Shown in pieces: positions 4,228 to 30,360 of a DNA stretch of 32,000 nt. Position 1 is the first letter of the stretch. Every line of letters begins with the position of its first letter. The notes below the pieces were generated by a model. The model was not told the DNA's origin, did not search any database, and was given only the letters and a program-made list of their open reading frames with translations. The stretch lies in assembly GCA_964591795.1 (NCBI GenBank), contig CAZQEL010000001.1:1-32000 (forward strand), in the 5' to 3' direction. This stretch comes from an uncultured archaeon (GTDB taxonomy: Archaea; Iainarchaeota; Iainarchaeia; Iainarchaeales; CSSED10-239). The translations under genes were made by a program, and so were the position numbers.

Positions 4228-5007
4228 ATGAAATTTTTATTAATTAATTCAACTAAAGACATTGCAGCTAATAATTTAACAGAAGAACTATTTAAATCAT
4301 ATAATTTTACTGAAATTAAACCAAATTTATATAAATTACAAATTGATGCTTTAAATGAAATATATTTAAAAAAAATTAATGACATACACATACATACAAA
4401 AAAAGAAAATATATGTAATGATGAAATTGATTTTGACCAAATTATATTTTTATCAAGACATTCAACTTTATCTAAAACAAAATCAAAATGTATGACTGTC
4501 CATGCAATTGGTAATTGGGGAATTGCAGAACTTGGAGGAAATGATTTTACAATTGTAAAAACAGATCCCATATTAATAAGGAGTTTACTTTTAAATTTAA
4601 AAGAAAATAAAAATCCAGAAATAAAACAATACGAAGTAAAACAAGAAGCAACCCATCATGGCCCTTATCTTGAAATACCAACTATTTTTTATGAAATTGG
4701 ATCTATTGATAATGATTGGAAAAATAAGGATGTTTCAAAATATATGATAAGAATTTTAATTGACACTATTAAAAATTATAATAAGAAAAAAATTATACTC
4801 GAACAAAACTGGATTGAAACAGTAGGAGTTGGAGGAAGTCATTATTGTACTAGATTTAATAAACTTACCTTTAATAGAAATAAAAAATATTGTTTTGGAC
4901 ATGTAGTTCCTAGTTATGCAATAAAAAATATTACTCCAGAAATATTAGAAGATGCTAAAAACAAAAGTAATTCTAAAAAAATAATATATGAAGAAGATAT
5001 TATATAA
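4228..5007 (+). CDS. dtdA: D-aminoacyl-tRNA deacylase, archaeal type (DTD2)
   Basis: 259-aa ORF. It is collinear with remembered Pyrococcus DTD2 motifs: SRHS, HAIGNWG..ELGG, EATHHGP, FYEIGS, VGVGGSHY and FGHVVPSYA. A GAGGGG SD lies upstream. Confidence 0.8.
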   Translation: MKFLLINSTKDIAANNLTEELFKSYNFTEIKPNLYKLQIDALNEIYLKKINDIHIHTKKENICNDEIDFDQIIFLSRHSTLSKTKSKCMTVHAIGNWGIAELGGNDFTIVKTDPILIRSLLLNLKENKNPEIKQYEVKQEATHHGPYLEIPTIFYEIGSIDNDWKNKDVSKYMIRILIDTIKNYNKKKIILEQNWIETVGVGGSHYCTRFNKLTFNRNKKYCFGHVVPSYAIKNITPEILEDAKNKSNSKKIIYEEDII

Positions 5008-5021
5008 CTACTTTATATAAT
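4999..5021. terminator. Shared hairpin between the convergent dtdA and DXR-like genes
   Basis: ATTATATAA-CTACT-TTATATAAT is a 9-bp inverted repeat containing both stop codons (TAA at 5005-5007 on the plus strand; TAG at 5008-5010 on the minus strand). Confidence 0.3.
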
Positions 5022-6129
5022 AATCTTCTAAATTACTTTTAATTTTTTGTTCAATTGCACAAACTGAACTTAAATCAGGATATTTATCAAATAAAGATTT
5101 ATCATCTATAATTTTTTTAAGCAAATCATAAATTTTAACCTTTTCTTTAAGTTTTCGATTATATATTAAATTAAGTATAGTTTCAATTGCAATATAATAT
5201 ACAATAGGATAGGAACCACCCTTTTCAATTGCATATAACCCAAGTTCTAAAAATTTTTCTTTACTTAAATCTATTTTTGAAAATGAAATTGAAAATTTTT
5301 TTTGTTTATTAAAAATATCTGATTTTAATTTCATACCAGAATTTAAGAAATAATAATTAAATATACTTTCAAGATTTAAATTTGCTGCAAAAATAACACT
5401 TGTACCATTTATAAAATTAACATCAATATTTGCAAATCTATCTGTTTGTTCATAAAATAAAAAACTATTAGGATGTATATTATAAATATAATTAATTAAA
5501 AATAAATCATTAACAAGCCTGATTTTGTTTAAAGAATAAAATTTTTTAAGATATGACACATAATTTGTATGTTCATTAATACTTATAGCTTTAGAAGTCA
5601 CTTTTTGAGAAAAAAGATTAATTGTATTTATTTTATTAACTGGATTTGATTTTAATAAAAAATCAAGTGAATAAATTGGGTATGAAAATAATTTCAACTT
5701 GATTCCTTTTGATTTTGCTTCATTTACAATTATTTTTCCAGAATATAATAAAGGAGAAGTATTTAATAAAGTAATATCTTTAAATTCATAAATTGCAGAT
5801 AATATTTTTTTAACACTTATAATTCCAGATAATGAAGAAACTACCTCGTCAATCTGATTAGATTTTATAAAATTAGAAAAATTTTCAGCACCACTAAAAA
5901 TATCTACTTTAACTTTTGATTCTATATAGTTAATATCTTTTTTTTCACTTAAAAATATTCTTTTTGGTTTAACCCGATTTACTTGAGTTATAAACAAATC
6001 TAAGTTATCTATTTTAGAATCATAGGATAACCCAAAAATTATAAATTTATTTGAATTATTTAAAAAAAAATCTAAAGCTTCATTACCAAGATCATTATTA
6101 GAACCCAAAATCACTATATTCTTTTTCAT
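5008..6129 (-). CDS. DXR (1-deoxy-D-xylulose-5-phosphate reductoisomerase)-like protein with degenerate cofactor and metal motifs; probably not a functional Dxr
   Basis: 373-aa ORF, collinear with E. coli Dxr as remembered. [20 protein letters not shown] aligns with [55 protein letters not shown] aligns with [59 protein letters not shown] aligns with CLKLAMEAFEQGQ..NAANEITVAAF. The motifs GSTGSIG, LANKES, PVDSEH, GSGGPF, NKGLE and HPQS are all replaced. Confidence 0.5.
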   Translation of the reverse strand: [373 protein letters not shown]

Positions 6130-6770: not shown

Positions 6771-6806
6771 CGAAAAAAAATAAAGAAAATGGATTAATTA
6801 ATCCAT
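6771..6806 (-). terminator. Stop-codon-embedded palindrome plus T-run after fusA
   Basis: ATGGATTAATTAATCCAT (6789-6806) is a perfect 18-nt palindrome that includes the fusA TAA. It is followed on the transcript by TTTCTTTATTTTTTTT. Confidence 0.4.
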
Positions 6807-8996
6807 AAAATATTCAGCTGGTTTTGGATCTGCATCCATACCTTTTCTTTTTCTAATTTCACTGATAGTATCTTTAAGTAAACTTTTTGGTAAAGTTTCA
6901 TATCCAGAATACTCAGCAGTCCACACAGCTCTACCTTGTGTTTCTCCTCTCATTTCTTGAGAGAACCCTATCATTGACTTAACAGGAATCTTACAAATAA
7001 AGATAGAAGAATCTCCTTCTGTTTTAATATCTTCAATTTGTGCTCTTCTTGAAGATAAAACCTTTGAAACAGAACCCATAAAATCTTGAGGAACTGAAAC
7101 AGTTAAGTTTTGCTTAGGTTCTAAAAGAACATAATTACCAGCTAAAACACAAGCATATATTCCTCTTGTAATTGCAGGTAATACTTGAGCAGGACCTCTG
7201 TGTATAGCATCTTCGTGTAAAGTAGTATCTTCTAATGAAACAATTATACCAGATACTTTTTCTTTAGCAACAGGACCTTCATTTGTAGCATCAACAAAAC
7301 CTTCAATAATAAGTTCTCTTACTTCATTTAAGTTTTGTATTCCTTTTGTTCTGTTAATTAATATTGAATGATTATTAACAGCCCAAACATTCTTTGAATC
7401 ATCATTTAAAAGACCAACTTCTTGTAATTTTTTAATTACATCAAGATCTTTATTAGGTCTAATTTTACCATTAAACTTAAATTTTCTAAAGTTTTCAAGC
7501 ATTTCTTTTTCAATAGGAGCTGCACTTAATTTAAACTTATTATGTTTATTTGGTGTTTTTGCTTCAACTTTTGGTGACTCAGTAGTAATTGTTTCATAAT
7601 ATACAACAATTGGTGAAGATACAGTTATTGGAATATTATTATCTTTTTCAATCTTATATTGAGTAATTTCTAAGTGAAGTTCTCCCATACCAGATAAAAG
7701 ATGTTCACCAGTATCTTGATTTAATTCAGCTTTTATATTTGGATCTTCTTTTGAAATATTATGAATTAATTGTATTAGTCTTGGAAGATCTTTTGAATTT
7801 TTAGCTTCAATTGAAATAGTCATTACAGGTTCAACATCAGTCATGAAATCTTCAAATGGAACAATATCGTGACTTGCAATTGTTTGACCAGAGTAAACTT
7901 CTTTAAGACCAATAATACATGCAATATTACCAGCTTTTACTTCTTCTAAAATAACTCTTTCAGGACCTAAATAAATTCCAACATATTGTACTTTTGTTGT
8001 TCTATCAGTTCCTAAAACTTTAAGATCCATTCCTTTCTTTATAGAACCTGAATAAATTCTTCCAGAAGCAATATCACCAGCATGCTTATCTAATACAATA
8101 TCTGTAACCATCATTGAAACTTCTTCTGATTCAGTATTACATTCAAGCATTGCTTTTCCTTCAGGTGTTTGATGATCACCTTTCCAAATAACTGGAATTC
8201 TATATTTTTGAGAAACTCTTGGATTTGGTAAGTGTTTTGCAACCATTCCTAAAAACACTTCTGAAATAGGAATTCTATCTGAAAGTTCTTTTTGTTGTTC
8301 TTTTTCAGCATAATCAATTACATCTTTAAAAGTTACATTATATTTTTTCATTGCAGGAACTGAAAGTGCCCAATTATGAAAACCAGAACCAAAACAAACA
8401 GAACCATCAGCAATTGAAACTTGCCAATCTTTTTTTAATTCATCTGTTGCATTCTTTACAATTAAATTATTAATATCCATTACAACTTTTACAAATTTCT
8501 TTTGCATATCTTCTGGAGTTACATGCATTTCTGTTATCAATCTATCAACTTTATTAATAAAAAGAACAGGTTTTACTCTTTCTCTTAAAGCCTGTCTTAA
8601 AACTGTTTCTGTTTGTGGCATTACACCTTCAACAGCATCAACAACTAAAACAGCTCCATCAACAGCTCTCATAGCTCTAATAACATCACCAGTAAAATCA
8701 ACGTGACCTGGTGTATCAATAATATTTATTAAATATTTTTCTTTATCTATTTCACATGGAACAGAAACATTTGCAGAATTAATAGTAATTCCTCTTTCTT
8801 GCTCTAAAATATATGAATCCATGAAAACTTGTTTACCAGCTAAATCTTTTGACATTAAACCAGCTGTTGCAACTAAATTATCTGTTAAAGTAGATTTACC
8901 ATGATCAATGTGTGCAATAATTGCAATATTTCTAATATTAGTTGTGTTTGACATTAATTTTTCAGCAAGTTCAGCAACTTGTTCTTTTCTTCCCAT
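6798..8996 (-). CDS. fusA: Translation elongation factor 2 (aEF-2)
   Basis: 732-aa ORF with a G1 motif (AHIDHGKST), DTPGH, NKVDR and the diphthamide-site motif HEDAIHRGPAQ. An AGGTGA SD lies upstream. Confidence 0.97.
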   Translation of the reverse strand: MGRKEQVAELAEKLMSNTTNIRNIAIIAHIDHGKSTLTDNLVATAGLMSKDLAGKQVFMDSYILEQERGITINSANVSVPCEIDKEKYLINIIDTPGHVDFTGDVIRAMRAVDGAVLVVDAVEGVMPQTETVLRQALRERVKPVLFINKVDRLITEMHVTPEDMQKKFVKVVMDINNLIVKNATDELKKDWQVSIADGSVCFGSGFHNWALSVPAMKKYNVTFKDVIDYAEKEQQKELSDRIPISEVFLGMVAKHLPNPRVSQKYRIPVIWKGDHQTPEGKAMLECNTESEEVSMMVTDIVLDKHAGDIASGRIYSGSIKKGMDLKVLGTDRTTKVQYVGIYLGPERVILEEVKAGNIACIIGLKEVYSGQTIASHDIVPFEDFMTDVEPVMTISIEAKNSKDLPRLIQLIHNISKEDPNIKAELNQDTGEHLLSGMGELHLEITQYKIEKDNNIPITVSSPIVVYYETITTESPKVEAKTPNKHNKFKLSAAPIEKEMLENFRKFKFNGKIRPNKDLDVIKKLQEVGLLNDDSKNVWAVNNHSILINRTKGIQNLNEVRELIIEGFVDATNEGPVAKEKVSGIIVSLEDTTLHEDAIHRGPAQVLPAITRGIYACVLAGNYVLLEPKQNLTVSVPQDFMGSVSKVLSSRRAQIEDIKTEGDSSIFICKIPVKSMIGFSQEMRGETQGRAVWTAEYSGYETLPKSLLKDTISEIRKRKGMDADPKPAEYFMD

Positions 8997-9122
8997 TTTA
9001 TATTCACCTTTAGTTATTTATAAATTTAATAAAAATTATCCTTAATAGAAAAACTAAGAAATGTATTTTATTTTTAAGACAATACTTGTAAATAGTATAT
9101 CTAATATATAATATAGTAGAGA

Positions 9123-9132
9123 TTTATTTAAA
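9123..9132 (-). promoter_or_regulatory. TATA box (TTTAAATAAA) upstream of fusA
   Basis: It lies in the 178-nt gap after the methyltransferase stop, ~130 nt upstream of the fusA ATG. It is followed by ACTATAT, as at other promoters in the window. Confidence 0.3.
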
Positions 9133-9174
9133 TACCTTTTCTTATATGTAAAAAATCCTATATTTTGCTAAAAA

Positions 9175-9804
9175 TTATGATTTTTTAGTCATTAAGCAAA
9201 CATAACGTCTTTTGTAGTTATTAGTACCATATCTTAAGGGAATTAGCTTATTAATAATAAAATCCTCTTTAAATGTTTCAATAATTTCTTTCTTTGATAA
9301 AGGATACGAGTACATATTTATTAAAGAATTAAAATAAAATTTTTTATTATTAAAAGTTTTTTCACGCTTATCAAAACAAAAAAGTAAAAATTTACCTTCT
9401 CTATTTAATAATTTAAATAAAGTTTTAGAATATTCTTTTCTTTTTTCAGGTAAGATATTATGAAATAAACCAACATCATATAAAAAATTATATTTATCTT
9501 TTAATAACTCTTTTGAAAAGACATCTGACTGTTTAAAATCCAGATTTTTATTTTTATAAGATTCTTTTGCAAATTTAATAATCTCTTTAGATACATCAAT
9601 TCCAGTTACTTTAAAGCCTTTTTTTGAAAGATAATTAGCAAAATAACCATTTCCACAGCCTAAGTCTAATGTTTTTGAAGAGGTAATCCATTTAGAATCA
9701 ATTATTTCTTTAAACCACTCTGGTATTGTGGTTCTAACCCATGGAAGTTTTTTTAAATTTTTTTTAAAAGAATAAATATCATTCCAATTATTTTCTTTTT
9801 CCAT
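9175..9804 (-). CDS. Class I SAM-dependent methyltransferase
   Basis: 209-aa ORF. Motif I is LDLGCGNGYF, followed by an acidic post-I residue (VTGIDVS). Its ATG lies 2 nt after the stop of the 1276-aa gene, which implies translational coupling. Confidence 0.8.
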   Translation of the reverse strand: MEKENNWNDIYSFKKNLKKLPWVRTTIPEWFKEIIDSKWITSSKTLDLGCGNGYFANYLSKKGFKVTGIDVSKEIIKFAKESYKNKNLDFKQSDVFSKELLKDKYNFLYDVGLFHNILPEKRKEYSKTLFKLLNREGKFLLFCFDKREKTFNNKKFYFNSLINMYSYPLSKKEIIETFKEDFIINKLIPLRYGTNNYKRRYVCLMTKKS

Positions 9805-9806
9805 AT

Positions 9807-12800
9807 TTAATTTAATTTTATAATTTTCACAATACCCTTATTAGCATCAACCTCAATTAAATCTCCATCTTTTAAAACTTTTGTTGCTGTTTTAGTACCA
9901 ATAACACATGGTTTTTTAAGTTCTCTAGAGACAATAGCAGCATGACAAGTTATTCCGCCTTCATCTGTAACAAACGCAGAAGCTTTTTTCATAGCTGGAA
10001 GATAATTAGGCATAGTCATTGCTGCAACCATTATTTCTCCTTTCTTAAAATTACCAATTTGTTTTTGAGAAGTAATTATTCTTACAATACCTTGTACTTT
10101 ACCTTTATAAGCAATTTGTCCACCTATTTCTTTAATATCTAATTTTTGTTTTTCTAAAGTTAAATTTAATTTATCTAATGTATCACTTATATTATCAGTA
10201 TATAGTTTACCTTGATAATAAACAAATCCTTTTTTTCTTTCTTTAATTATATTTAGCATTAATTTTTTATTATTAACAGTTTTAGAAATAATATCATCTG
10301 GAAATACAAATTTGGTATTATTTTTTAAATAAGGAAATTTATTTTCAATGAATTCTTTAAATATAGGTTCTAAACTTTCAGCATATTTTTGAATTTTTTC
10401 TCTTAAAGCTAAAGCTTTTAATTTAATTTTTTTTGAAACATTAAAATTATCTTCAGGCAAAACAAATATTACAGCAACTTCAGCCCAATATGCTCCATAT
10501 AATTTAATTATTTTTTGATATTCAAAAATAGATTTTATTTGTCTACCTTTAAAATATGGCAATAATAAATTAAACTTTTTTAATAAATTAGAAAATATTA
10601 AATATACTAACTTTGGATTACTATTTATATTTGATTCTATAATTTTAAATACAGTAAAAAGCTCTTTATTATCATAATAAACATCCACAAGATCTTTTCC
10701 AGTATAAATAAAAGTTGTATTTTTTAAATCTTTTTTAATTAATTTAATTTTTTTAAAATAATATAAATAACTAAGATACCAAGCATATATTCTAGTTAGA
10801 GAATATTCTCTTGAATGTTCTTTATGTAATTGTGTTTTATATTTATCATCAAAAAATTCCTGTCCACTTAAAGTTATATTTAATTTATTTAAATTTTTAA
10901 AAATATCACCAGTATATAAATTTCCTTGATAATAGACGTACCCTTTTTCTCTTTTAGTAATTAATTTTAATAATTCAATTTTATTATTTACAAGCCCTGA
11001 CCAAATATCATCTGGCAATACAAAATTGCTTTTATTTTTAAGATAAGAATATTTTGATTCAATAAACAAAGATATTGCTTTTTGAATTACAAAATTATAT
11101 TCTTGAGATTCTGCCCGCTTTTTTAATGCAAATTGTTTTAATTTTTCAGAAACTGGTAAAGTTGGAAGAACAGTAACAAGTTGCATATACATCCAATTAT
11201 CAGAACACAAATTTTGAATTTCTTTTAATTCATCTAAATTTTTAATTTTTGAAGTATTTTTTTTAAATCTAATATATAATTGTTTAAATTTATTTAAATT
11301 GGCACTAATTTTTTGTATTACTAATTTAGGGTCTTTAATTGAAAGCTCAATTATTTTTTGAGTAATATTTTGTAATTCAGACAAATCATAATATATTTTT
11401 ACAAGATTTTTATTATCATAAACTGCACAAGTATGATTCATTTTTTCTCCAACAATTGAATAAAATCCATTAGTCATTGAATCTTGAGCAGCACTTAATC
11501 TAAAAAGAGTAAATTCATTAAGTTCTCTTGAAAATAATAACGAAAGATTTTTAATTTTTAATAATGTATTTACTTTATTTATTGTTGTTGTTTTTTTTAA
11601 TTTAGTTATTGATCTTGATTGTGTAATATCTATTTTATTTTTTTCTTTATTTAATATTCTAACAACACCATTATCTGCATCAACTTCTACTAGATCCCCA
11701 TCTTTTAAAATATCAGTAGCTATTTTAGTTCCAATCACACATGGTTTCTTAAGTTCTCTAGAAACAATAGCAGCATGACAAGTAATTCCACCCTCATCAG
11801 TCACAAATGCTGCTGCTTTATACATAGCAGGAAGATAATTAGGCATAGTCATTGCTGTAACTAAAATATCCCCTTTTTTAATTTTATTTAAATCTTTGAT
11901 ATTTAATACAATTTTTACTTTTCCTTTTACCTTTCCATTAAATGCTGATTGTCCTTTAAGTTTATCTTGTTTTTTGATTGTTTTCTCTTCAATTCTTATT
12001 CCTAAATTATCCAAAATTCCCTCAATATTTCCTGTGAAAATTTCACCCCTATAAAAAACAAAACCCTTATTTCTTTCTTTAATTTTTTGTAGCATATTCT
12101 TTTTATTTTTAACTTCTTCAGACCAAACTTCTTCTGGTAAGACAAACTTGGTTTTATCTTTAAGGAATGGATAAAATTTCACTAAAGTTTCTTTGAATAC
12201 ATCCTCTATTGTTTCATTATAATCTTGAATGTCTTTTCTTGCTTTAAGGGCTATATCTTTAATATTTTGTGGTAAAAAGTCCATTCTTGGAACAGCAAAA
12301 ACCATCCCATGAAGTAAATAATATTCTGTATATTTTTCATAAACTTTTTTTAATTCATTCTTTTTCAAAATATGCTTTTTTTCTTTAAAATAAGGAAGAA
12401 GATAATTAAAATCATTATATAATTTTTTTATTAATTTTTCAAAAAATGTTTTGTCTGTTACTTTTTTTGCTATACTTTTAAATAAACCATCCCATGAACT
12501 TTTTGTATAATAAACATTTACCAAATTTCCTCGATAAATTTTGCAAGCATCTTTTACTTTATATCCAAAAATCTTTTCACTTAGCTTCTCATAATTTTCA
12601 TATAAAGAATAAACTCTAAATAAAGAATATTCTCTTGAGTGTTGTTTTATGAAAATTTCTGATATGTTATCTTTTTTATAAATAAATTTGCTTTCTGTTA
12701 AAGTTGTAATTGGTCTACTCTGAGTTATATATATTTTGTTCTTTTCAATAGCCCATTCAATATCTACAGGAAAACCATAATGATTTTCAATTTTCTTAAT

Positions 12801-13637
12801 TAAATTAGAAAGAGATAAAATCTGAGATTTAGAAAGAACTTGTGAACCACCTAATTTTTTAGTTAGTTCCTTCCATTTAGTACCTTTTTTTAAACATCTA
12901 TACATTGCTTTAGATTGTTCACTTATATTTTGCTCCAAGATTTTAAGTGGTTTTTTAGAAACAATATAACTATCAGGTGTTATTGCTCCAGAAACAATTG
13001 CTTCTCCTAACCCATAACCAGCTTCAATAATTAATTGATTATAATCTTCAGTTACTGGATGTACAGAAAAGGCAATTCCAGATTTTTCTGAATTCACCAT
13101 TTTTTGAATAACTACAGCTACTGAAATATATTTATTTTGTAAATTTTTTTCAAATCTATAAAAAATAGCTCTTGAAGTAAATAAAGATCCCCAACATCTC
13201 TTTACATTAAATAATATATTTTTTTCAGTTGTATTAAGATAGGTATCCAACTGTCCAGCCCAAGCAACACTAGCAGAATCTTCTGAAGTGGCTGATGATC
13301 TTACTGCTACAAATTTTGTTTTTAATTTTTTAAAATAAGACAATATATCTTTTGAAAGCTTTTTTGAAATTTCTTTAGAAAGAATTAAATTTTGAATTTC
13401 TTTAGAAGCATTATCAATAGTTTGTACTTTTTTAATATTTACTTTATTTAAAATTAAATTAATTTTTACGTTTAAATTATTTTCTTTAATAAAAATATCA
13501 AAAGCAGAAGATAATATCACAAAACCATTTGGAACAGAAATATCTGAAGAATACATTTCTCCTAAAGAAGCTCCTTTACCACCTGCTTCTTTAACTGAGT
13601 CTTTATTTAAATCTTTAAAAAATTTAATTATAACCAT
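9807..13637 (-). CDS. PEP-utilising-enzyme family multidomain phosphotransferase (PpsA/PPDK N-terminal ATP-grasp plus two swivel phosphohistidine domains plus three helical modules); no PEP/pyruvate TIM-barrel domain
   Basis: 1276-aa ORF. Residues 1-313 resemble the PpsA N-terminal nucleotide-binding domain (GGKGASLGEM, VAVRSSATSEDS, ..YITQSRPIT). Two near-identical mobile His domains carry TDEGGITCHAAIVSRELKKPCVIGT (His621 and His1232). Three paralogous ~225-aa modules occupy residues ~325-555, ~695-925 and ~935-1165. Confidence 0.8.
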   Translation of the reverse strand: MVIIKFFKDLNKDSVKEAGGKGASLGEMYSSDISVPNGFVILSSAFDIFIKENNLNVKINLILNKVNIKKVQTIDNASKEIQNLILSKEISKKLSKDILSYFKKLKTKFVAVRSSATSEDSASVAWAGQLDTYLNTTEKNILFNVKRCWGSLFTSRAIFYRFEKNLQNKYISVAVVIQKMVNSEKSGIAFSVHPVTEDYNQLIIEAGYGLGEAIVSGAITPDSYIVSKKPLKILEQNISEQSKAMYRCLKKGTKWKELTKKLGGSQVLSKSQILSLSNLIKKIENHYGFPVDIEWAIEKNKIYITQSRPITTLTESKFIYKKDNISEIFIKQHSREYSLFRVYSLYENYEKLSEKIFGYKVKDACKIYRGNLVNVYYTKSSWDGLFKSIAKKVTDKTFFEKLIKKLYNDFNYLLPYFKEKKHILKKNELKKVYEKYTEYYLLHGMVFAVPRMDFLPQNIKDIALKARKDIQDYNETIEDVFKETLVKFYPFLKDKTKFVLPEEVWSEEVKNKKNMLQKIKERNKGFVFYRGEIFTGNIEGILDNLGIRIEEKTIKKQDKLKGQSAFNGKVKGKVKIVLNIKDLNKIKKGDILVTAMTMPNYLPAMYKAAAFVTDEGGITCHAAIVSRELKKPCVIGTKIATDILKDGDLVEVDADNGVVRILNKEKNKIDITQSRSITKLKKTTTINKVNTLLKIKNLSLLFSRELNEFTLFRLSAAQDSMTNGFYSIVGEKMNHTCAVYDNKNLVKIYYDLSELQNITQKIIELSIKDPKLVIQKISANLNKFKQLYIRFKKNTSKIKNLDELKEIQNLCSDNWMYMQLVTVLPTLPVSEKLKQFALKKRAESQEYNFVIQKAISLFIESKYSYLKNKSNFVLPDDIWSGLVNNKIELLKLITKREKGYVYYQGNLYTGDIFKNLNKLNITLSGQEFFDDKYKTQLHKEHSREYSLTRIYAWYLSYLYYFKKIKLIKKDLKNTTFIYTGKDLVDVYYDNKELFTVFKIIESNINSNPKLVYLIFSNLLKKFNLLLPYFKGRQIKSIFEYQKIIKLYGAYWAEVAVIFVLPEDNFNVSKKIKLKALALREKIQKYAESLEPIFKEFIENKFPYLKNNTKFVFPDDIISKTVNNKKLMLNIIKERKKGFVYYQGKLYTDNISDTLDKLNLTLEKQKLDIKEIGGQIAYKGKVQGIVRIITSQKQIGNFKKGEIMVAAMTMPNYLPAMKKASAFVTDEGGITCHAAIVSRELKKPCVIGTKTATKVLKDGDLIEVDANKGIVKIIKLN

Positions 13638-13706
13638 ATATTACTTAAACTAAAATAAGTTTAAAAACTATTTGTTTTTCAGCAAAATAATATTTAAAGG
13701 ATTATC

Positions 13707-13844
13707 CTATTTAGCTGTATTATCTTTAATTTTTGCTTTTTTAAAATCCCAAATAACTTTTGTTTTTTCTTTATTTGTAAATTTCCCCGTAAACTTAACA
13801 TTAGAAACTGGTTTTTTTAAAATAGATTTTTTTGGTAATGGCAT
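13707..13844 (-). CDS. Candidate small ORF (45 aa, Lys-rich), not in the supplied track
   Basis: My own translation gives MPLPKKSILKKPVSNVKFTGKFTNKEKTKVIWDFKKAKIKDNTAK followed by TAG. An AGGAG (13856-13860) lies 11 nt upstream of the ATG and 8 nt after the stop of the preceding gene. It sits in an otherwise unexplained 231-nt gap. Confidence 0.3.
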   Translation of the reverse strand: MPLPKKSILKKPVSNVKFTGKFTNKEKTKVIWDFKKAKIKDNTAK

Positions 13845-13868
13845 ATTTATAACATCTCCTTTTTATGA

Positions 13869-14630
13869 CTATCTTAAAATATAATTTTTAATTTTATTAA
13901 TTGAAAACTTTTCCTTTCTAACTTCTTTTACAGTCACATACTTTTTTTTTCGATTACTAGTAGTATGTGAAACATAATCTAGAAAGTTATTTGAAATATA
14001 ACTAACATAATCAAAAACTGGATTTAAATTACTTACTTTTCCATTATTAATTTTTATACTTAAATTTTCATTTTTATTAATTTCATTTAATTTATTAAAA
14101 ACACTAATGAAAAAATTATTTCCTTCAATTACTAATTGATTTTTGTCTTTAGCTATTAATAGTTCATAAAAAATTTCTGAAAATTTTTGAAAATATTTAG
14201 ATTGCATTGTAACTCTTCTACTTTCAATAAACTTAGTTATTGAATCTAAAACTTCAATAGCAAGTACTGGAAATTTAATTTTATAAAATTTATTTTTAAT
14301 TAAATTTATTTCTTTTTTAGATTTATTAGGATATCTTTTAATTAATAAATTATCTGAAATTTTAAAAGAACTAAATAAACTATAAACACCTCTAATTATA
14401 ACCTCTCTTGAATCCTTACCAACTAGTTTTTTATGATTAGATTTTCTAATAATAAATTCTTTATATTTAGGTGATTCAAAAGTACGATAAATATTTCTAA
14501 TTGATTTTGCATATCTTATATCATATTCTTTAATATTATATGATTTTGATATTTTAGATAGTTTTTTTTCTAAAACATATCCTTTACCATATCTAATTCT
14601 ATCTGGAATTAAAGTTTTTAGTCTTTTCAT
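13869..14630 (-). CDS. Hypothetical basic protein (orphan); first gene of the accessory cassette
   Basis: 253-aa uninterrupted ORF in a genome where AT-rich stop codons are frequent. It has an ATG start, a TTTATAAA box ~50 nt upstream, no recognisable motif and no Cys. Confidence 0.55.
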   Translation of the reverse strand: MKRLKTLIPDRIRYGKGYVLEKKLSKISKSYNIKEYDIRYAKSIRNIYRTFESPKYKEFIIRKSNHKKLVGKDSREVIIRGVYSLFSSFKISDNLLIKRYPNKSKKEINLIKNKFYKIKFPVLAIEVLDSITKFIESRRVTMQSKYFQKFSEIFYELLIAKDKNQLVIEGNNFFISVFNKLNEINKNENLSIKINNGKVSNLNPVFDYVSYISNNFLDYVSHTTSNRKKKYVTVKEVRKEKFSINKIKNYILR

Positions 14631-14676
14631 ATATATCTAAATTAATAATCTATATAAAAATATAAAGAACAATAAG

Positions 14677-14684
14677 TTTATAAA
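14677..14684 (-). promoter_or_regulatory. TATA box (TTTATAAA) for the accessory cassette
   Basis: It lies ~50 nt upstream of the ATG at 14630 and downstream of the rps7 hairpin and T-run. Confidence 0.35.
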
Positions 14685-14750
14685 AGAAATTGATATTTAA
14701 AAATTTAAAAATAGAAAAATAAGATTTGCAAAAAATGAAATTATTGCAAA

Positions 14751-14790
14751 TTAAATAAAAATTAAAAAAATAAACTGAAAAAATCAGTTT
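14751..14790 (-). terminator. Stop-codon-embedded hairpin plus T-run after rps7
   Basis: A 7-bp stem (AAACTGA / TCAGTTT at 14772-14778 and 14784-14790) with a 5-nt loop overlaps the TAA. It is followed on the transcript by ATTTTTTTAATTTTTATTT. Confidence 0.4.
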
Positions 14791-15388
14791 ATCTTGAACC
14801 ATGTGCGATTCTTTCAATATCATCTCTTCTTTTTACAGCATAACTTTTTGGATCATTTTTAGATGCTGCAATTAATTCTTCAGCAAGAGTTGATGCCATA
14901 TCTTTTTTTGTCTTAAAAGTTGCCTTGAAAGGAGCAAGAGCTAAATTTTTTAAAGCTTCATCAAGTCTTAAAATTGGAGCAACATCAACAGCTTGGTTAT
15001 AAGTTATTCCACCTCTTTTAAGTCTGATAATATCTTCTCTTGGAGTTGAATGTTCAATAGCTTCAATAAGAACTTGAATAGGATTTCTTTTTGTTGTAGC
15101 ATATATAGAATCAAATGCTTCATCAATAGTTTTAATCATATGTTCTTTTTTTCCACAAGAATTTTTCCCTCTTAAAAATTTACCAGAAAGTTTTTTCTTA
15201 CCCTGTCCTGATCTCATCATTTTATTTATAAGTCTTTCTACTACATGTACTTTTGCTTTATCAGTAGGAGTACTTTTTGCAACACCAAATGTATGAGGTA
15301 TTTCTTTTTCCTTAAAACTTATATATTTTGCAACACCTAAATCTTTACAAACAACCTCATTGGTTGTCCATTTACCTAAAATCATCAT
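14789..15388 (-). CDS. rps7: 30S ribosomal protein S7 (uS7)
   Basis: The N-terminus is archaeal-S7-like (MMILGKWTTNEVVCKDLGVAKYI) and the C-terminus is typical (AVKRRDDIERIAHGSR). The preferred start is the ATG at 15388, preceded by GGTG. The ORF-track start at 15400 is a TTG. Confidence 0.93.
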   Translation of the reverse strand: MMILGKWTTNEVVCKDLGVAKYISFKEKEIPHTFGVAKSTPTDKAKVHVVERLINKMMRSGQGKKKLSGKFLRGKNSCGKKEHMIKTIDEAFDSIYATTKRNPIQVLIEAIEHSTPREDIIRLKRGGITYNQAVDVAPILRLDEALKNLALAPFKATFKTKKDMASTLAEELIAASKNDPKSYAVKRRDDIERIAHGSR

Positions 15389-15409
15389 ATTTAACACCAA
15401 TCTTTATAT

Positions 15410-15835
15410 CTATCTAGTAGATTTCTCTTTTTTACCTGTTCTTAACATTTCAAGGGATTGTCCATTTACTTTTATAACCTTGTATTTAACACCCCAAAGA
15501 TCTCCAACAGGTCCACCCTTACGTCCACCAATACCTTCTACAGTAACTTGATCGTGGATTTCAATAAATTTAATAGCTTTATCCTTAGGAGCTAAAGCTG
15601 TAAGTTCTTTACCATTTTTAATAAGCTTTACTCTTACACATTTTCTAATACCTGAATTTGGCTGTCTTGCTGTAATTCCTTTCTTTTCAAGTACTATACC
15701 TTTTGCTTGAGGAGCTCCTCTTAAAAGACCTTTTTTAGCTTTTACTTTTATACTTCTTTTTTGTCTAGGATCTTTTTTTGCCCATTTAATTCTATCTTTA
15801 ATATTTTTTTTTGCTGCGAATTCACCATTTGCCAT
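15410..15835 (-). CDS. rps12: 30S ribosomal protein S12 (uS12)
   Basis: 141-aa ORF with [24 protein letters not shown] and [32 protein letters not shown] lies upstream. Confidence 0.96.
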
Positions 15836-17896: not shown

Positions 17897-18517
17897 TTAA
17901 ATTACTTTTTTACAAACCTTATTTAATAAATCATTATTTATTAAATTATTGAAATAATCCACTTCTGCTTTAGTTATTCTATATTTATTATAAAACTCAA
18001 TCTCTTCTTCAGTAGCTCCTTCTATATTATTTTTTGAAGGTCTATTTTTATCTTCCTTACAATCATACATCTCTAAAAAGGGACTATCATAACTAATTAT
18101 ATAATTTTCTATAATTGATATTGAACTATTATCATCTTCCCACATACTTTTATATTCTTCATAAGTTAAATTTAAATATCTTGTATTTTTTCCACCAATT
18201 AAACCACCAACATCTATAATATATCCTTGATTTAATTTAAAAGAAGGTAATCTGTACTGTGCATAATTTACTTGCTGATTTAAATTATTATCTTTAGTAT
18301 CTATTGATCCAGGAATAATTACTGGTGAAGAATATGAAGTTATATTATTATCTTTAGTACCTACAGGAATATTTAAAGAATAATCTTTATCTGTTTTAAA
18401 AATAAATGGTCCTGGTTCAGTGACATATGCTTTATTTTGAGATTCTCTTAACAAAAATAAAACAACTACAATTATTACCACTAAAATTATTATTGTTATT
18501 AAACTATTTTTTTTCAT
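17897..18517 (-). CDS. Hypothetical membrane-anchored protein inserted between rpoA1 and rpoA2
   Basis: 206-aa ORF with an N-terminal TM anchor (LITIIILVVIIVVVLFLL). It contains an internal short repeat (GTKDNNITSY / DTKDNNLNQQ). Its stop lies 16 nt before the rpoA2 ATG. Confidence 0.55.
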   Translation of the reverse strand: MKKNSLITIIILVVIIVVVLFLLRESQNKAYVTEPGPFIFKTDKDYSLNIPVGTKDNNITSYSSPVIIPGSIDTKDNNLNQQVNYAQYRLPSFKLNQGYIIDVGGLIGGKNTRYLNLTYEEYKSMWEDDNSSISIIENYIISYDSPFLEMYDCKEDKNRPSKNNIEGATEEEIEFYNKYRITKAEVDYFNNLINNDLLNKVCKKVI

Positions 18518-30256: not shown

Positions 30257-30286
30257 ATAAATCAAATTTTATTGAAAATGAAAAAG

Positions 30287-30360
30287 TGGGACTGCCCCGA
30301 TTTGAACGGGGGTCGTAAGCTCCCAAAGCTTAAATGCTAACCAGGCTACACCACAGCCCC
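30287..30360 (-). tRNA. tRNA-Pro (anticodon UGG)
   Basis: The reverse complement GGGGCTGTGGTGTAGCCTGGTTAGCATTTAAGCTTTGGGAGCTTACGACCCCCGTTCAAATCGGGGCAGTCCCA folds as a cloverleaf. The acceptor stem has 7 bp (GGGGCTG/CAGTCCC, one G-U). The anticodon stem is TAAGC/GCTTA with loop TT-TGG-GA. The T arm is CCCCG-TTCAAAT-CGGGG. The discriminator is A and no CCA is encoded. It is the only GC-rich island nearby. Confidence 0.9.

Follow-up and report, generated by a model that had tools for sequence, protein, structure and literature searches.

A probable lineage-specific gene island, carrying a dikinase-like gene, at the rps7/fusA junction of Forterrea-like Iainarchaeota

Introduction

In the typical archaeal str/L30e order, rps7 (ribosomal protein S7) and fusA (elongation factor EF-2) are neighbours, although S7, fusA and tuf are not contiguous in every archaeon (PMC10833476). 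In prokaryotic pangenomes, core-gene-flanked integration hot spots, or genomic islets, hold variable, lineage-dependent cargo and gene remnants at a fixed slot between core genes.

The rifampin phosphotransferase RPH-Lm (5hv1, 5fbs) has an N-terminal ATP-grasp domain, a middle domain that binds rifampin and a C-terminal His-swivel domain. PEP synthase (PpsA; 8a8e, 2ols) and PPDK have a swivel His domain and a C-terminal PEP/pyruvate-binding TIM barrel (PEP-utilizers_C, PF02896). Alpha-glucan, water dikinase (GWD) is a large multidomain enzyme with tandem non-catalytic CBM45 domains and one copy each of the His and ATP-grasp domains. The Rhodococcus enzyme HpeHI (9goj) consists of a stand-alone ATP-grasp subunit and a separate swivel/acceptor subunit (PMC12167813).

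Here we analysed the rps7/fusA junction in a stretch of 32,000 nucleotides (the window) and compared it with about 30 related Iainarchaeota/Forterrea-like loci, mostly MAG contigs. The host is a tiny DPANN archaeon, a Forterrea-like member of the Iainarchaeota.

Layout of the junction

The 5.5-kb stretch between rps7 and fusA holds three intact genes (orf253 of the X family, the gene of a 1276-aa enzyme and MT209) and one decayed gene, orf45. Features are listed below from upstream to downstream; all lie on the minus strand.

15410-15835, minus: S12 (ORF call)
14789-15400, minus: rps7 (S7), upstream conserved flank (Pfam Ribosomal_S7, E 5.5e-34)
14750-14795, minus: terminator-like hairpin over the S7 stop codon, then U-runs (folding energy)
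14652-14690, minus: conserved promoter-like block ATTTCTTTTATAAACTTATTGTTCTTTATATTTTTATAT, about 20-60 nt 5' of the orf253 ATG, including the TTTATAAA box
13869-14630, minus: orf253, X family, a lineage-specific basic orphan of pI 10.1 (no profile match)
13707-13844, minus: orf45, truncated N-terminal remnant of a Y-family gene (identity to L031_orf200)
9807-13637, minus: 1276-aa multi-module His-swivel dikinase-like protein, in the order ATP-grasp, M1, swivel 1, M2, M3, swivel 2
12684-13637, minus: its ATP-grasp nucleotide-binding domain, aa 1-318 (PPDK_N at aa 16-317, E 6e-95)
12003-12668, minus: M1 domain, aa 324-545, novel alpha/beta-helical fold (AF2 model)
11658-11975, minus: swivel phospho-histidine domain 1, aa 555-660 (Pfam PEP-utilizers and motif scan)
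10902-11567, minus: M2 domain, aa 691-912 (M-domain HMM, E 4e-106; 31% identical to M1)
10188-10892, minus: M3 domain, aa 916-1150 (M-domain HMM, E 1e-104; 48% identical to M1)
9822-10145, minus: swivel phospho-histidine domain 2, aa 1165-1272 (Pfam PEP-utilizers at aa 1197-1268 and motif scan)
9175-9804, minus: MT209, class I SAM-dependent methyltransferase, 209 aa (Pfam TPMT 42.4 bits, cut-off 26)
9101-9143, minus: conserved promoter-like block AAGAAAAGGTATTTAAATAAATCTCTACTATATTATATAT, about 105-145 nt 5' of the fusA ATG, including the TTTAAATAAA box
6798-8996, minus: fusA (EF-2), downstream conserved flank (complete EF-G/EF-2 domain set)

S7 is 58-83% identical across about 20 related loci, and EF-2 is 72-90% identical in related loci. 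Much of a preliminary description of this DNA is borne out here. Four same-strand ORFs do lie between rps7 and fusA, with the coordinates and strand given there. The methyltransferase ATG stands 2 nt past the stop codon of the large gene. A dxr-like gene, and not tuf, follows fusA, in the window and in the whole clade. The large gene, described as phosphotransferase-like, encodes PPDK_N and two PEP-utilizers domains (Pfam), and the last gene, described as a SAM methyltransferase, scores well above the TPMT cut-off. The hairpin and T-run reported at the end of rps7 and the T-runs reported after the methyltransferase stop were likewise found, as detailed below.

Transcription signals

The hairpin over the S7 stop codon has 12 bp and an MFE of -11.4 kcal/mol (z = -4.3), and none of 200 shuffles was equally stable. 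A comparable hairpin is present in L032, with T-runs in all relatives. Together, hairpin and U-runs resemble a terminator, a function we infer from their form. Runs of T5 and T6 lie 3' of the MT209 stop.

Block ATTTCTTTTATAAACTTATTGTTCTTTATATTTTTATAT is the sole well-conserved part of the S7-X intergenic region (window, L031, L004, L023 and L032). Block AAGAAAAGGTATTTAAATAAATCTCTACTATATTATATAT hardly differs between the window, L004, L023, L003 and L033 and can still be recognised in L025, regardless of the upstream gene, and an AGGTGA Shine-Dalgarno-like motif stands 5' of the fusA ATG. The TTTATAAA and TTTAAATAAA boxes of the preliminary description each fall within the best-conserved block of their own intergenic region (4-6 relatives); TTTATAAA alone is not above chance in this 24% GC window (14 seen, 12 +/- 3 expected). 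Both the conserved blocks and the hairpin speak for separate transcription signals. The island would probably be transcribed from its own promoter, downstream of the rps7 hairpin and U-run, and fusA would probably have a separate, conserved promoter that gives its transcript a leader of about 100 nt. Read-through is frequent at archaeal U-runs, so the island may also be co-transcribed with rps7.

The 1276-aa dikinase-like protein

The large protein contains internal repeats, with a 215-aa M domain in three copies and two swivel domains that are 81% identical in nucleotide sequence across 237 nt. M2 has no swivel domain of its own behind it. The predicted catalytic residue of swivel 1, His621, lies within GGITCHAAIVSRE and is invariant across 29 sequences; His1232 is predicted for swivel 2 from the motif scan. 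All family-invariant ATP-grasp residues are kept (K21, R113, E119/D120, E294, Q306, R308), and the best PDB matches of this domain are PEP synthase, RPH and HpeI. An AF2 model of aa 1-665 (pLDDT 85.5) has RPH as its best Foldseek PDB match (E 1e-35), with HpeI also among the best. Foldseek finds nothing similar to the M1 model (pLDDT 94.5, pTM 0.90) in PDB or BFVD (best E about 1), and the M1 sequence matches nothing in Pfam or PDB. Conserved M-domain residues include R335, R467, R522 and G525. Among 7254 homologues, those with a named source come from CPR or DPANN, bar one Flavobacteriaceae-labelled MAG, and the top 120 contain one to five swivel domains each; we found no published description of this large CPR/DPANN family. 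The M1-swivel1 module is 69% identical to one in a protein that shares just 60% identity in the ATP-grasp domain, which shows that modules are exchanged laterally.

The protein resembles RPH-Lm in its N-terminal ATP-grasp, middle and C-terminal His-swivel domains, and neither has the TIM barrel. However, the M domain bears no relation to the rifampin-binding domain, there are three M and two swivel domains, and the NCBIfam RPH score is 386 against a cut-off of 999. In sequence, the ATP-grasp domain is closest to PpsA/PPDK (E 2e-90 to 8a8e), and the swivel His domain is homologous, with the GGxT(S/C)HAAI motif. The large protein differs from these enzymes in having no PF02896 (Pfam search), in its extra M and swivel modules and in scoring under the equivalog cut-offs. 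Two-component small-molecule dikinases (HpeHI and phenylphosphate synthase) are paralleled by intact stand-alone ATP-grasp genes of 314-318 aa, with all invariant residues, in the same slot of L031, L023, L003 and L011, the last with an additional stand-alone swivel gene of 102 aa. In the window, by contrast, the protein is a single fused chain, its acceptor-side domains are not RPH- or HpeH-like, and there is no aromatic-catabolism context.

By homology, the 1276-aa protein appears to share the His-swivel dikinase mechanism of PEP synthase, PPDK and rifampin phosphotransferase. As in RPH-Lm, ATP would presumably be converted to AMP, Pi and a phospho-acceptor by way of phospho-His. A pyrophosphoryl group would first pass from ATP at the N-terminal ATP-grasp domain to His621 or His1232 of a swivel, AMP and then Pi would leave, and the phospho-His would swing to an acceptor held by the M domains, with their conserved R335, R467 and R522. 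This acceptor would probably be an anionic small molecule or a polymer. A mechanism with one ATP-grasp and several swivels is extrapolated from single-swivel enzymes. Because the tandem M2 lacks a swivel, the M domains may serve for binding or as a scaffold and not as acceptor sites, and by analogy with GWD they possibly bind a polymer. GWD, however, has the opposite domain order, with a C-terminal ATP-grasp, its binding modules are not related to the M domains, and its His domain is single.

The methyltransferase and the small basic proteins

MT209 has an N-terminal W..Y...LPW motif and the motif I sequence LDLGCGNG. Besides TPMT, it matches generic methyltransferase domains in Pfam; in PDB sequence searches it is closest to the Methanosarcina methyltransferase 6mro, thiol methyltransferase and methyl chloride transferase. 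Profiles of PrmA and of tRNA and rRNA methyltransferases match weakly. From sequence, MT209 is best classed as a small-molecule-type methyltransferase of the TPMT/HOL/TehB-like group, from which it differs in falling under every NCBIfam equivalog cut-off and in its setting. All inspected orthologue loci (at least 56% identity) lie in the island, 3' of S7 and followed by EF-2 if the contig reaches that far, and the methyltransferase gene is immediately 5' of fusA in four genomes.

The X protein orf253 has no match in Pfam, NCBIfam, PADLOC or PHROG. Its family comprises only 4 clusters among 5.8 billion proteins and 5 representatives among 1.84 billion, and X is immediately 3' of S7 wherever it was found among the sampled loci (L031, L004, L023, L032 and L033). 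The 45-aa ORF of the preliminary description is present but is not a true small gene. It is 72% identical to aa 1-33 of L031_orf200, a Y-family protein, and is a decayed island gene; Y proteins are 150-200 aa long in relatives (L031, L003, L032, L028, L008, L025 and L035). Both X and Y are strongly basic (pI about 10, K+R 21-25%).

The junction in related genomes

S7 and EF-2 are adjacent, with a gap of about 60-140 bp, in five related genomes (L009, L012, L013, L014 and L015). In other relatives the slot is occupied in the following orders (BIG, dikinase-like gene; MT, methyltransferase):

Window: X-y-BIG-MT
L031: X-Y-ATPgrasp-MT-SSF
L004: X-MT
L023: X-ATPgrasp-MT
L003: Y-ATPgrasp-MT
L032: X-Y-MT
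L033: X-141-W-MT-R-122-BIG-235
L028: Y-BIG-S8 peptidase
L025: R-BIG-Y-Z
L008: Y-Z
L035: W-Y-MT-further genes

The recurring families are X, Y, Z, W, R, MT, dikinase and orf235, in varying combinations and orders. L004, L032 and L035 have the methyltransferase but no kinase, and L025, L028 and L011 the kinase but no methyltransferase; in L033 the methyltransferase is 5' of the kinase. MT209 is an independent member of the island and not a partner that the dikinase requires. L011, L017 and L018 carry unrelated cargo at the S7/EF-2 junction.

In a neighbour-joining tree of EF-2, clades A and B each have a bootstrap of 100 and A+B has 66, while L011 is nested at 100% support among island-less genomes. 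Clades with an EF-2 identity of only about 80% share these slot families, and the ATP-grasp domains of slot genes form one cluster, apart from other family members. GC3 spans 0.05-0.14 within the island and 0.04-0.15 elsewhere in the window, with no anomaly in codon use. No flanking repeats, tRNA or structured RNA were found at the island borders, and Pfam and NCBIfam give no transposase or integrase match for the four island ORFs.

Discussion

These comparisons make it probable that the 5.5 kb between rps7 and fusA represent one local version of a gene island at this junction in Forterrea-like Iainarchaeota, an island that is old, lineage-specific and highly plastic. The preliminary description instead saw a self-contained cassette, inserted as one unit into a conserved gene string and encoding a kinase-methyltransferase modification module. 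A recent mobile or horizontally transferred unit of this kind would agree with the uninterrupted junction in the five relatives, which does bear out a split, even if the contiguity claimed for archaea at large was overstated. The promoter-like and terminator-like signals, the 2-nt gap between the large gene and MT209 and the lateral exchange of dikinase modules also fit. Yet synteny largely refutes it: slot content varies across clades as a shuffled pool of the same families, kinase and methyltransferase each occur without the other, orf45 is decayed and the slot ATP-grasp domains form one clade. The suggested comparison of codon use and GC3 with the flanks gave no deviation, and no terminal repeats, tRNA target or mobility genes (Pfam and NCBIfam, four island ORFs) were found. 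The large gene, the methyltransferase and the 253-aa protein were not co-localised outside the rps7/fusA locus and this lineage, so there is no independent evidence of a functional kinase-methyltransferase module, and we consider the cassette quite unlikely. A role in translation is unlikely as well. Here the island would belong to the str/L30e operon and be co-transcribed with rps12-rps7-fusA, with X and Y as ribosomal or RNA-binding proteins peculiar to the lineage, and with ribosomal proteins, rRNA/tRNA or EF-2 as targets of modification by MT209 or the dikinase. Co-oriented genes persist inside the operon in many genomes, X and Y are as basic as the neighbouring ribosomal proteins, and MT209 has both its place beside fusA and its weak PrmA, tRNA and rRNA methyltransferase matches. 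But co-orientation is uninformative, since it holds across the whole window, and nearly all proteins of this 24% GC genome are basic (pI about 9.6 for dikinase and methyltransferase). X, Y, MT and dikinase are each dispensable in at least one close relative, and all four families are missing where S7 and EF-2 are adjacent. In addition, the best matches of MT209 are of TPMT, thiol methyltransferase and methyl-halide transferase type, and the island lies between conserved signals of terminator-like and promoter-like form.

For the large gene, a conventional identity as PEP synthase/pyruvate, water dikinase (gluconeogenesis) or rifampin phosphotransferase (antibiotic resistance) was considered and rejected as very improbable. 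In source annotations, homologues do carry the names "phosphoenolpyruvate synthase/pyruvate phosphate dikinase" or "rifampicin phosphotransferase", the top NCBIfam matches are PEP synthase (563 bits) and RPH, and RPH leads the Foldseek matches. These NCBIfam scores are under all curated cut-offs (598 for PEP synthase), however, and the matches are confined to aa 3-395 or the swivel domains; the TIM barrel is missing, and M domains unlike RPH or anything in the PDB, three of them with two swivels, replace the rifampin-binding domain. On the related contig L026, moreover, a bona fide PEP synthase with PF02896 stands alongside a separate member of the large-gene family. The chance that unrelated DNA was joined between rps7 and fusA in a chimeric contig, through faulty assembly or binning, is close to negligible. 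The genome is metagenome-derived, and one ENA assembly has the region in three contigs, with breaks within orf253 and at the MT-fusA border. Against this, JGI contig L042, from another sample, covers S12-S7-orf253-orf45-BIG-MT-EF2 with identical proteins, ENA and Logan contigs match parts of the arrangement, and both island junctions are seen again in independent assemblies. Relatives also show both (S7-X in L031 and L032; MT-EF2 in L003, L004 and L023), and composition is uniform.

The plastic island resembles genomic islets in its variable cargo and gene remnants at a fixed slot. It differs in having no integrase, tRNA or att repeats, in drawing on a recurring lineage-specific pool rather than typical mobile cargo, and in its position inside the archaeal RNAP/str superoperon. 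In the ancestral state, S7 would have been followed directly by EF-2. The island would then have been founded in the ancestor of EF-2 clades A and B with a dikinase-like gene, small basic orphans and a methyltransferase, so dating occupation of the slot to at least that common ancestor, a node with a bootstrap of 66. As A+B monophyly has just this NJ support, the island may alternatively be older still, with repeated clean losses in clade C. From its founding in the A and B ancestor, the island would have changed one gene at a time, as genes were lost, truncated, reordered or joined by unrelated cargo, and other lineages would have acquired independent insertions into the same junction. Conserved rps7 and fusA could plausibly serve as anchors for homologous recombination, which would make this slot a hot spot of gene exchange.

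Gene order and border signals of the S7–EF-2 interval

The window has a GC content of about 24%, and its minus strand holds almost all genes. In its 5′ to 3′ direction the gene order runs rpoH, split rpoB, rpoA′, an additional gene (orf206), rpoA″, L30e, a short NusA-like ORF, S12, S7, the variable island, EF-2 and a dxr-like gene. ORF and Pfam assignments give the rpo/L30e/S12/S7 order save for orf206 between rpoA′ and rpoA″; the order S7, fusA, tuf, S10 is not kept, as a 5.8-kb island splits S7 from fusA. Every element listed in the preliminary description was recovered in place by the ORF and Pfam re-check, and the island consists of the following:

13869-14630, minus strand: orf253, of family X
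13707-13844, minus strand: orf45
9807-13637, minus strand: 1276-aa gene, with PPDK_N (E 6e-95) and two PEP-utilizers mobile domains
9175-9804, minus strand: MT209, a 209-aa class I methyltransferase with its ATG 2 nt past the stop of the 1276-aa gene

The arrangement is not an assembly artefact, since an independent JGI contig (L042) covers S12, S7, orf253, orf45, the 1276-aa gene, the methyltransferase and EF-2, and parts of it are also seen in ENA and Logan contigs.

A hairpin does follow rps7 and is stronger than first described: its 12-bp stem overlaps the stop codon, has a folding energy of -11.4 kcal/mol (z = -4.3) and is followed by U-runs. The TTTATAAA box, which had been read as opening the island, occurs as a bare motif at chance frequency in this AT-rich window (14 found, 12 expected) and was rejected as a stand-alone signal. 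In an alignment of five genomes the box lies inside the sole well-conserved block of the S7–X intergenic region. The TTTAAATAAA box 5′ of fusA is present as described and sits in a block that is near-identical across six genomes, regardless of the preceding gene. These phylogenetic footprints are the actual evidence for promoters, and on that basis both blocks are putative promoters. Scans for sigma-70 promoters and intrinsic terminators returned chance-level counts, and this model set is uninformative for an archaeon.

Gene content of the junction in related genomes

An EF-2 protein scan of GTDB genomes identified 22 loci. The closest EF-2 is that of ‘Candidatus Forterrea multitransposorum’ (CP045477, 90% identical), and several Iainarchaeum/ainarchaeum MAGs are also among the nearest relatives, which places the window genome as Forterrea-like within the DPANN phylum Iainarchaeota. 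We compared the S7–EF-2 interval in about 30 related loci (denoted L0nn), with families assigned by all-against-all BLAST and HMM searches. The adjacency of rps7 and fusA on which the preliminary description relied is found in five genomes (L009, L012, L013, L014 and L015), where the gap between S7 and EF-2 is 60–140 bp. Within the window’s clade the interval is never empty and the gene set is never repeated.

Table. Gene content of the S7–EF-2 interval. Numbers are lengths in aa. X, family of orf253; Y, a 150–200-aa family; BIG, dikinase-like gene; MT, methyltransferase related to MT209; R, W and Z, further families.
Window: X253, Y remnant (orf45), BIG1276, MT
L031 (closest; X 81%, MT 87%): X, Y200, ATP-grasp317, MT, SSF transporter
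L004 (Forterrea): X, MT
L023: X, ATP-grasp316, MT
L003: Y187, ATP-grasp318, MT
L032: X, Y179, MT
L033: X225, orf141, W150, MT, R93 (weak winged-helix match), orf122, BIG1143, orf235
L006: (contig start) BIG, orf235
L028: Y162, BIG900, S8 peptidase
L025: R93, BIG1110, Y175, Z281
L008: Y151, Z298
L035-37: W150, Y190, MT, orf117, large secreted proteins

In other lineages the junction is filled with unrelated genes. L018 encodes a Bro-N domain protein (8187-9817), of a kind typical of viruses and mobile elements. L017 (6767-9742) has opposite-strand genes, including a LigT-like 2′-5′ RNA ligase/phosphoesterase and a protein with a MarR-like winged-helix domain. L011 (3430-9858, CAYXAY010000007.1) encodes two radical-SAM enzymes (one with SPASM), an acetolactate-synthase-like TPP enzyme, a 102-aa stand-alone swivel (the phospho-histidine domain), orf340 and a 314-aa stand-alone ATP-grasp protein; this set looks like a three-component dikinase within a small-molecule or peptide modification cluster.

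The 93-aa protein R93 is encoded just upstream of the full-length dikinase gene in L025 (5295-5576) and L033 (9715-9996), with 72% identity between the two, and is absent from the window. Its TBPIP-like winged-helix Pfam match is weak and below the curated cut-off. R93 may be a dedicated regulator.

History of the island

A neighbor-joining EF-2 tree was built from full-length sequences with bootstrapping; partial sequences were left out. Clade A (the window, L031, L004, L003, L006, L033 and L005) and clade B (L025, L008 and L007) each have a bootstrap of 100, and A plus B has 66. L011 is nested at 100% support among island-free genomes. The ATP-grasp domains of all genes at the junction form one cluster, separate from other members of the family. 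In the most economical history, S7–EF-2 adjacency would be ancestral, the ancestor of A and B would have gained an island, and gene-by-gene loss, truncation, reordering and gain would have followed; elsewhere, independent insertions would have hit the same junction. The conserved rps7 and fusA genes on either side may have served as anchors for homologous recombination, making the junction a hot spot. Direct evidence of decay comes from orf45, which matches residues 1–33 of the 200-aa Y protein of L031 at 72% identity; it had been listed as a possible ORF and is instead a remnant of Y.

No feature that we checked marks the island as mobile. Pfam and NCBIfam searches of the four island ORFs found no transposase or integrase, and neither did a PADLOC and PHROGs scan of the three larger ones. 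Searches for flanking direct or inverted repeats returned only AT-rich chance matches at the island borders, and the strong repeats lie inside the 1276-aa gene. The borders are also free of tRNA genes and structured RNA; the sole tRNA in the window is at 30286-30360. GC, GC3 and synonymous-codon distance of the island genes fall within the range of other window genes, so the comparison of codon usage and GC3 with the flanks did not set the island apart. What is seen across the roughly 30 loci is variable presence and content at a fixed site, as in a mobile island.

The proposal of an insertion into a conserved gene string holds in the evolutionary sense, with S7–EF-2 adjacency probably ancestral, and fails as a discrete or recent event. 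Nor do the varying gene sets of related loci bear out a self-contained cassette. From these comparisons the island appears to be old and plastic, neither self-contained nor recent. Even in the RNAP/str superoperon of a genome-reduced DPANN archaeon, a junction can be one of long-lived turnover, and interruptions of the superoperon need not be single recent insertions. The rps7–fusA junction also offers a defined locus for the study of gene flux in DPANN populations.

Other unusual genes in the superoperon

The superoperon has a second interruption, specific to this genome, between rpoA′ and rpoA″:

17897-18517, minus strand: orf206, orphan with an N-terminal membrane anchor and no family match

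The rpoA′–rpoA″ gap is only 23–165 bp in 20 of 20 related loci spanning this junction, including the closest relative L031, and none has an orf206 homolog there. The insertion was confirmed on an independent ENA contig (L041).

The absence of tuf after fusA is confirmed, with a dxr-like gene in its place in the window and the whole clade. Clade-wide, a divergent DXP-reductoisomerase-like gene (window 5008-6129) comes after fusA, together with a convergent D-aminoacyl-tRNA-deacylase-like gene (PF04414; window 4228-5007) in place of tuf–rps10; both are in the same position in L003-L021, L025 and L033. Only the N-terminal NADPH-binding domain of the dxr-like product matches, with 55 bits in Pfam and with scores far below the Dxr cut-offs of NCBIfam. 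A Dxr-like protein is odd for an archaeon with minimal metabolism.

The methyltransferase and the orphan families

MT209 matches Pfam TPMT (PF05724, 42.4 against a cut-off of 26) and Methyltransf_25 (E 4e-14), has motif I (LDLGCGNG) at aa 47-54, and falls below every NCBIfam equivalog cut-off. Among proteins of solved structure, it is closest to the Methanosarcina methyltransferase 6mro, thiol methyltransferase, methyl chloride transferase, phosphoethanolamine N-methyltransferase and TehB. Based on its homology to thiol and methyl-halide methyltransferases, we treat it as a putative small-molecule methyltransferase. A defense role was also considered, as MT209 matches PADLOC mad2 of the MADS defense system (E 3.5e-17). 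That match covers the methyltransferase domain only and is probably generic class I similarity; no other defense components are near MT209, PADLOC has no match for the dikinase, X, Y or Z, and PHROGs gave just a ‘kinase’ match on the swivel region.

Pairing of a kinase-like gene with a methyltransferase had suggested a modification module. MT209 orthologs (≥56% identity) form about 18 clusters, and at nine of the nine loci inspected the gene is directly downstream of S7, with EF-2 next wherever the contig reaches. L004, L032 and L035 have the methyltransferase but no dikinase, and L025, L028 and L011 have the dikinase but no methyltransferase. In L033 the methyltransferase is upstream of the dikinase, with two ORFs between. 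Co-occurrence is thus inconsistent at the junction, and distant methyltransferase homologs (≤40%) and other members of the dikinase family are found in unrelated contexts without the partner. Their co-localization therefore reflects common ancestry at a single locus and does not count as independent evidence of coupling; the pair does not form a conserved functional module.

Family X is very narrow, with 4 clusters among 5.8 billion proteins and 5 representatives among 1.84 billion. A distant relationship between X and Y was rejected (hhalign probability 0.2%). Their basic pI was likewise set aside as evidence for ribosomal proteins because nearly all proteins of the window are basic.

Architecture and class of the 1276-aa protein

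The dikinase family, rather than the interruption itself, is the most interesting content of the island. The domains of the 1276-aa protein, with M1–M3 denoting its middle domains, are:

aa 1-318: ATP-grasp
aa 324-545: M1
swivel 1 (His621)
aa 691-912: M2
aa 916-1150: M3
swivel 2 (His1232)

PPDK_N (PF01326) matches at aa 16-317 (E 5.9e-95), and the two PEP-utilizers domains (PF00391) carry GGITCHAAIVSRE at His621 and His1232. Across 29 family members K21, R113, E119/D120, E294, Q306, R308 and H621 do not vary, the invariant ATP-grasp residues are intact in all ATP-grasp genes at the junction, and both swivel histidines are intact in the 1276-aa protein. With these residues it is predicted to be a His-swivel dikinase, converting ATP to AMP and Pi with phosphorylation of an acceptor. 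By analogy with the dikinase class, ATP would pyrophosphorylate the swivel His, Pi would leave, and the phosphoryl group would then be delivered to an acceptor on the M domains.

The database names for such proteins are PEP synthase and rifampin phosphotransferase (RPH). The NCBIfam PEP synthase models do score (NF005057, 563.5 against a cut-off of 598; TIGR01418, 532.8 against 739.75), with both scores below the equivalog cut-offs and the best stretch limited to aa 3-396. The PEP/pyruvate TIM barrel (PF02896) has no match at E ≤ 0.01 in the protein, which ends in a swivel, and PEP synthase is ruled out on these two counts. RPH is closer in layout, sharing an ATP-grasp domain, a middle domain and a C-terminal His swivel without a TIM barrel, and RPH is the first Foldseek match of the model of aa 1-665 (5hv1, E 9.7e-36). 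Scores against the NCBIfam RPH models are nevertheless far under their cut-offs (NF041857, 386 against 999; NF000283, 266 against 1700). The M domain is not homologous to the rifampin-binding domain of RPH-Lm, and RPH identity is ruled out on the M domain’s lack of an RPH match despite the top match of the whole model. HpeI, the ATP-grasp subunit of the two-component dikinase HpeHI, is also among the structural matches of the aa 1-665 model. HpeHI is a precedent for separately encoded parts (PMC12167813), whereas in the window the ATP-grasp and swivel/acceptor parts are fused in one chain.

Many homologs are listed with Epimerase_2 (PF02350) and PF01989 fusions. These were rejected as evidence for a link to sugar nucleotides; on rescanning, the Epimerase_2 matches are sub-threshold or marginal and overlap the swivel domains.

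The M domain

Modeled alone, the M domain is predicted with very high confidence both locally and overall (pLDDT 94.5, pTM 0.90). Searches of the model against PDB and BFVD gave no match (best E about 1, TM-scores < 0.3), and no RPH entry is in the top 50 from PDB. An M-domain profile found nothing below E 0.1 among PDB sequences and had no Pfam match. On these results, the RPH rifampin-binding domain, the EI helical domain and other known folds were rejected. R335, R467, R522 and G525 are conserved and common to the M domains, which hints at an anionic ligand. Since M2 and M3 are in tandem and M2 has no swivel of its own, a binding or scaffold role is possible, which may be comparable to that of the carbohydrate-binding modules of glucan, water dikinase.

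Size, spread and modular exchange of the family

A word-indexed search with the 1276-aa protein returned at least 7254 matches. Among those listed, the matches with a named source are almost all from Patescibacteria/CPR or DPANN. In the best 120 of the at least 7254, a single N-terminal ATP-grasp is combined with one to five swivels, with a variable middle domain before each swivel. Parts of this layout are also encoded separately. The stand-alone ATP-grasp genes of L031, L023, L003 and L011 (314–318 aa) end exactly at the domain boundary and keep all invariant residues, and L011 has the 102-aa swivel gene. In L026/L027, the context of the homolog P0007, the gene for a 1246-aa family member has a separate 365-aa gene after it, which encodes a middle domain and a swivel. 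This middle domain is not M-type; neither L011_orf340 nor L026_orf365 matched in the M-domain search, and both were rejected as M-type.

Neighboring genes in L026/L027 encode a LMW phosphatase, a HAD hydrolase and a VapBC pair. A true PEP synthase, complete with PF02896, is encoded on the same contig, so the family coexists with PEP synthase and is distinct from it.

M1–swivel 1 (window 11643-12680, aa 319-665) is 69% identical to aa 312-660 of the homolog P0004. The ATP-grasp domains of the two proteins are only 60% identical, and that of P0004 falls outside the clade found at the junction. Paralogous modules within the 1276-aa protein and in orthologs are only 47% identical. The M2–M3–swivel 2 part is collinear with the homologs P0003 and P0002 at 63–65%. 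Taken together, these identities point to whole modules having been shuffled laterally between family members.

Literature searches found no published description of this dikinase family in CPR/DPANN. What is new here is a predicted His-swivel dikinase whose acceptor-side domain is novel and whose layout has more than one swivel, in a variable island flanked by core genes. The family joins a known phosphotransfer engine to a confidently predicted domain of novel fold, with one ATP-grasp and many swivels. The names PEP synthase and rifampin phosphotransferase are mislabels for this very large, mainly CPR/DPANN family, and could lead to false gluconeogenesis in metabolic reconstructions and to false rifampin resistance in resistome surveys. 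As a speculative reading, which we consider rather improbable as a whole, these proteins may be an undescribed class of multi-headed His-swivel dikinases, mainly of ultra-small CPR/DPANN organisms. A single ATP-grasp would act as the ‘charging’ domain, and each swivel would have novel-fold acceptor or binding domains, fused or separate. In Forterrea-like archaea such an enzyme, together with a pool of orphan partners, would be kept and exchanged at a recombination hot spot with rps7 and fusA as its anchors. If this is true, metabolically dependent symbionts could use such enzymes to phosphorylate a polymer or several metabolites that they scavenge, spending ATP to AMP.
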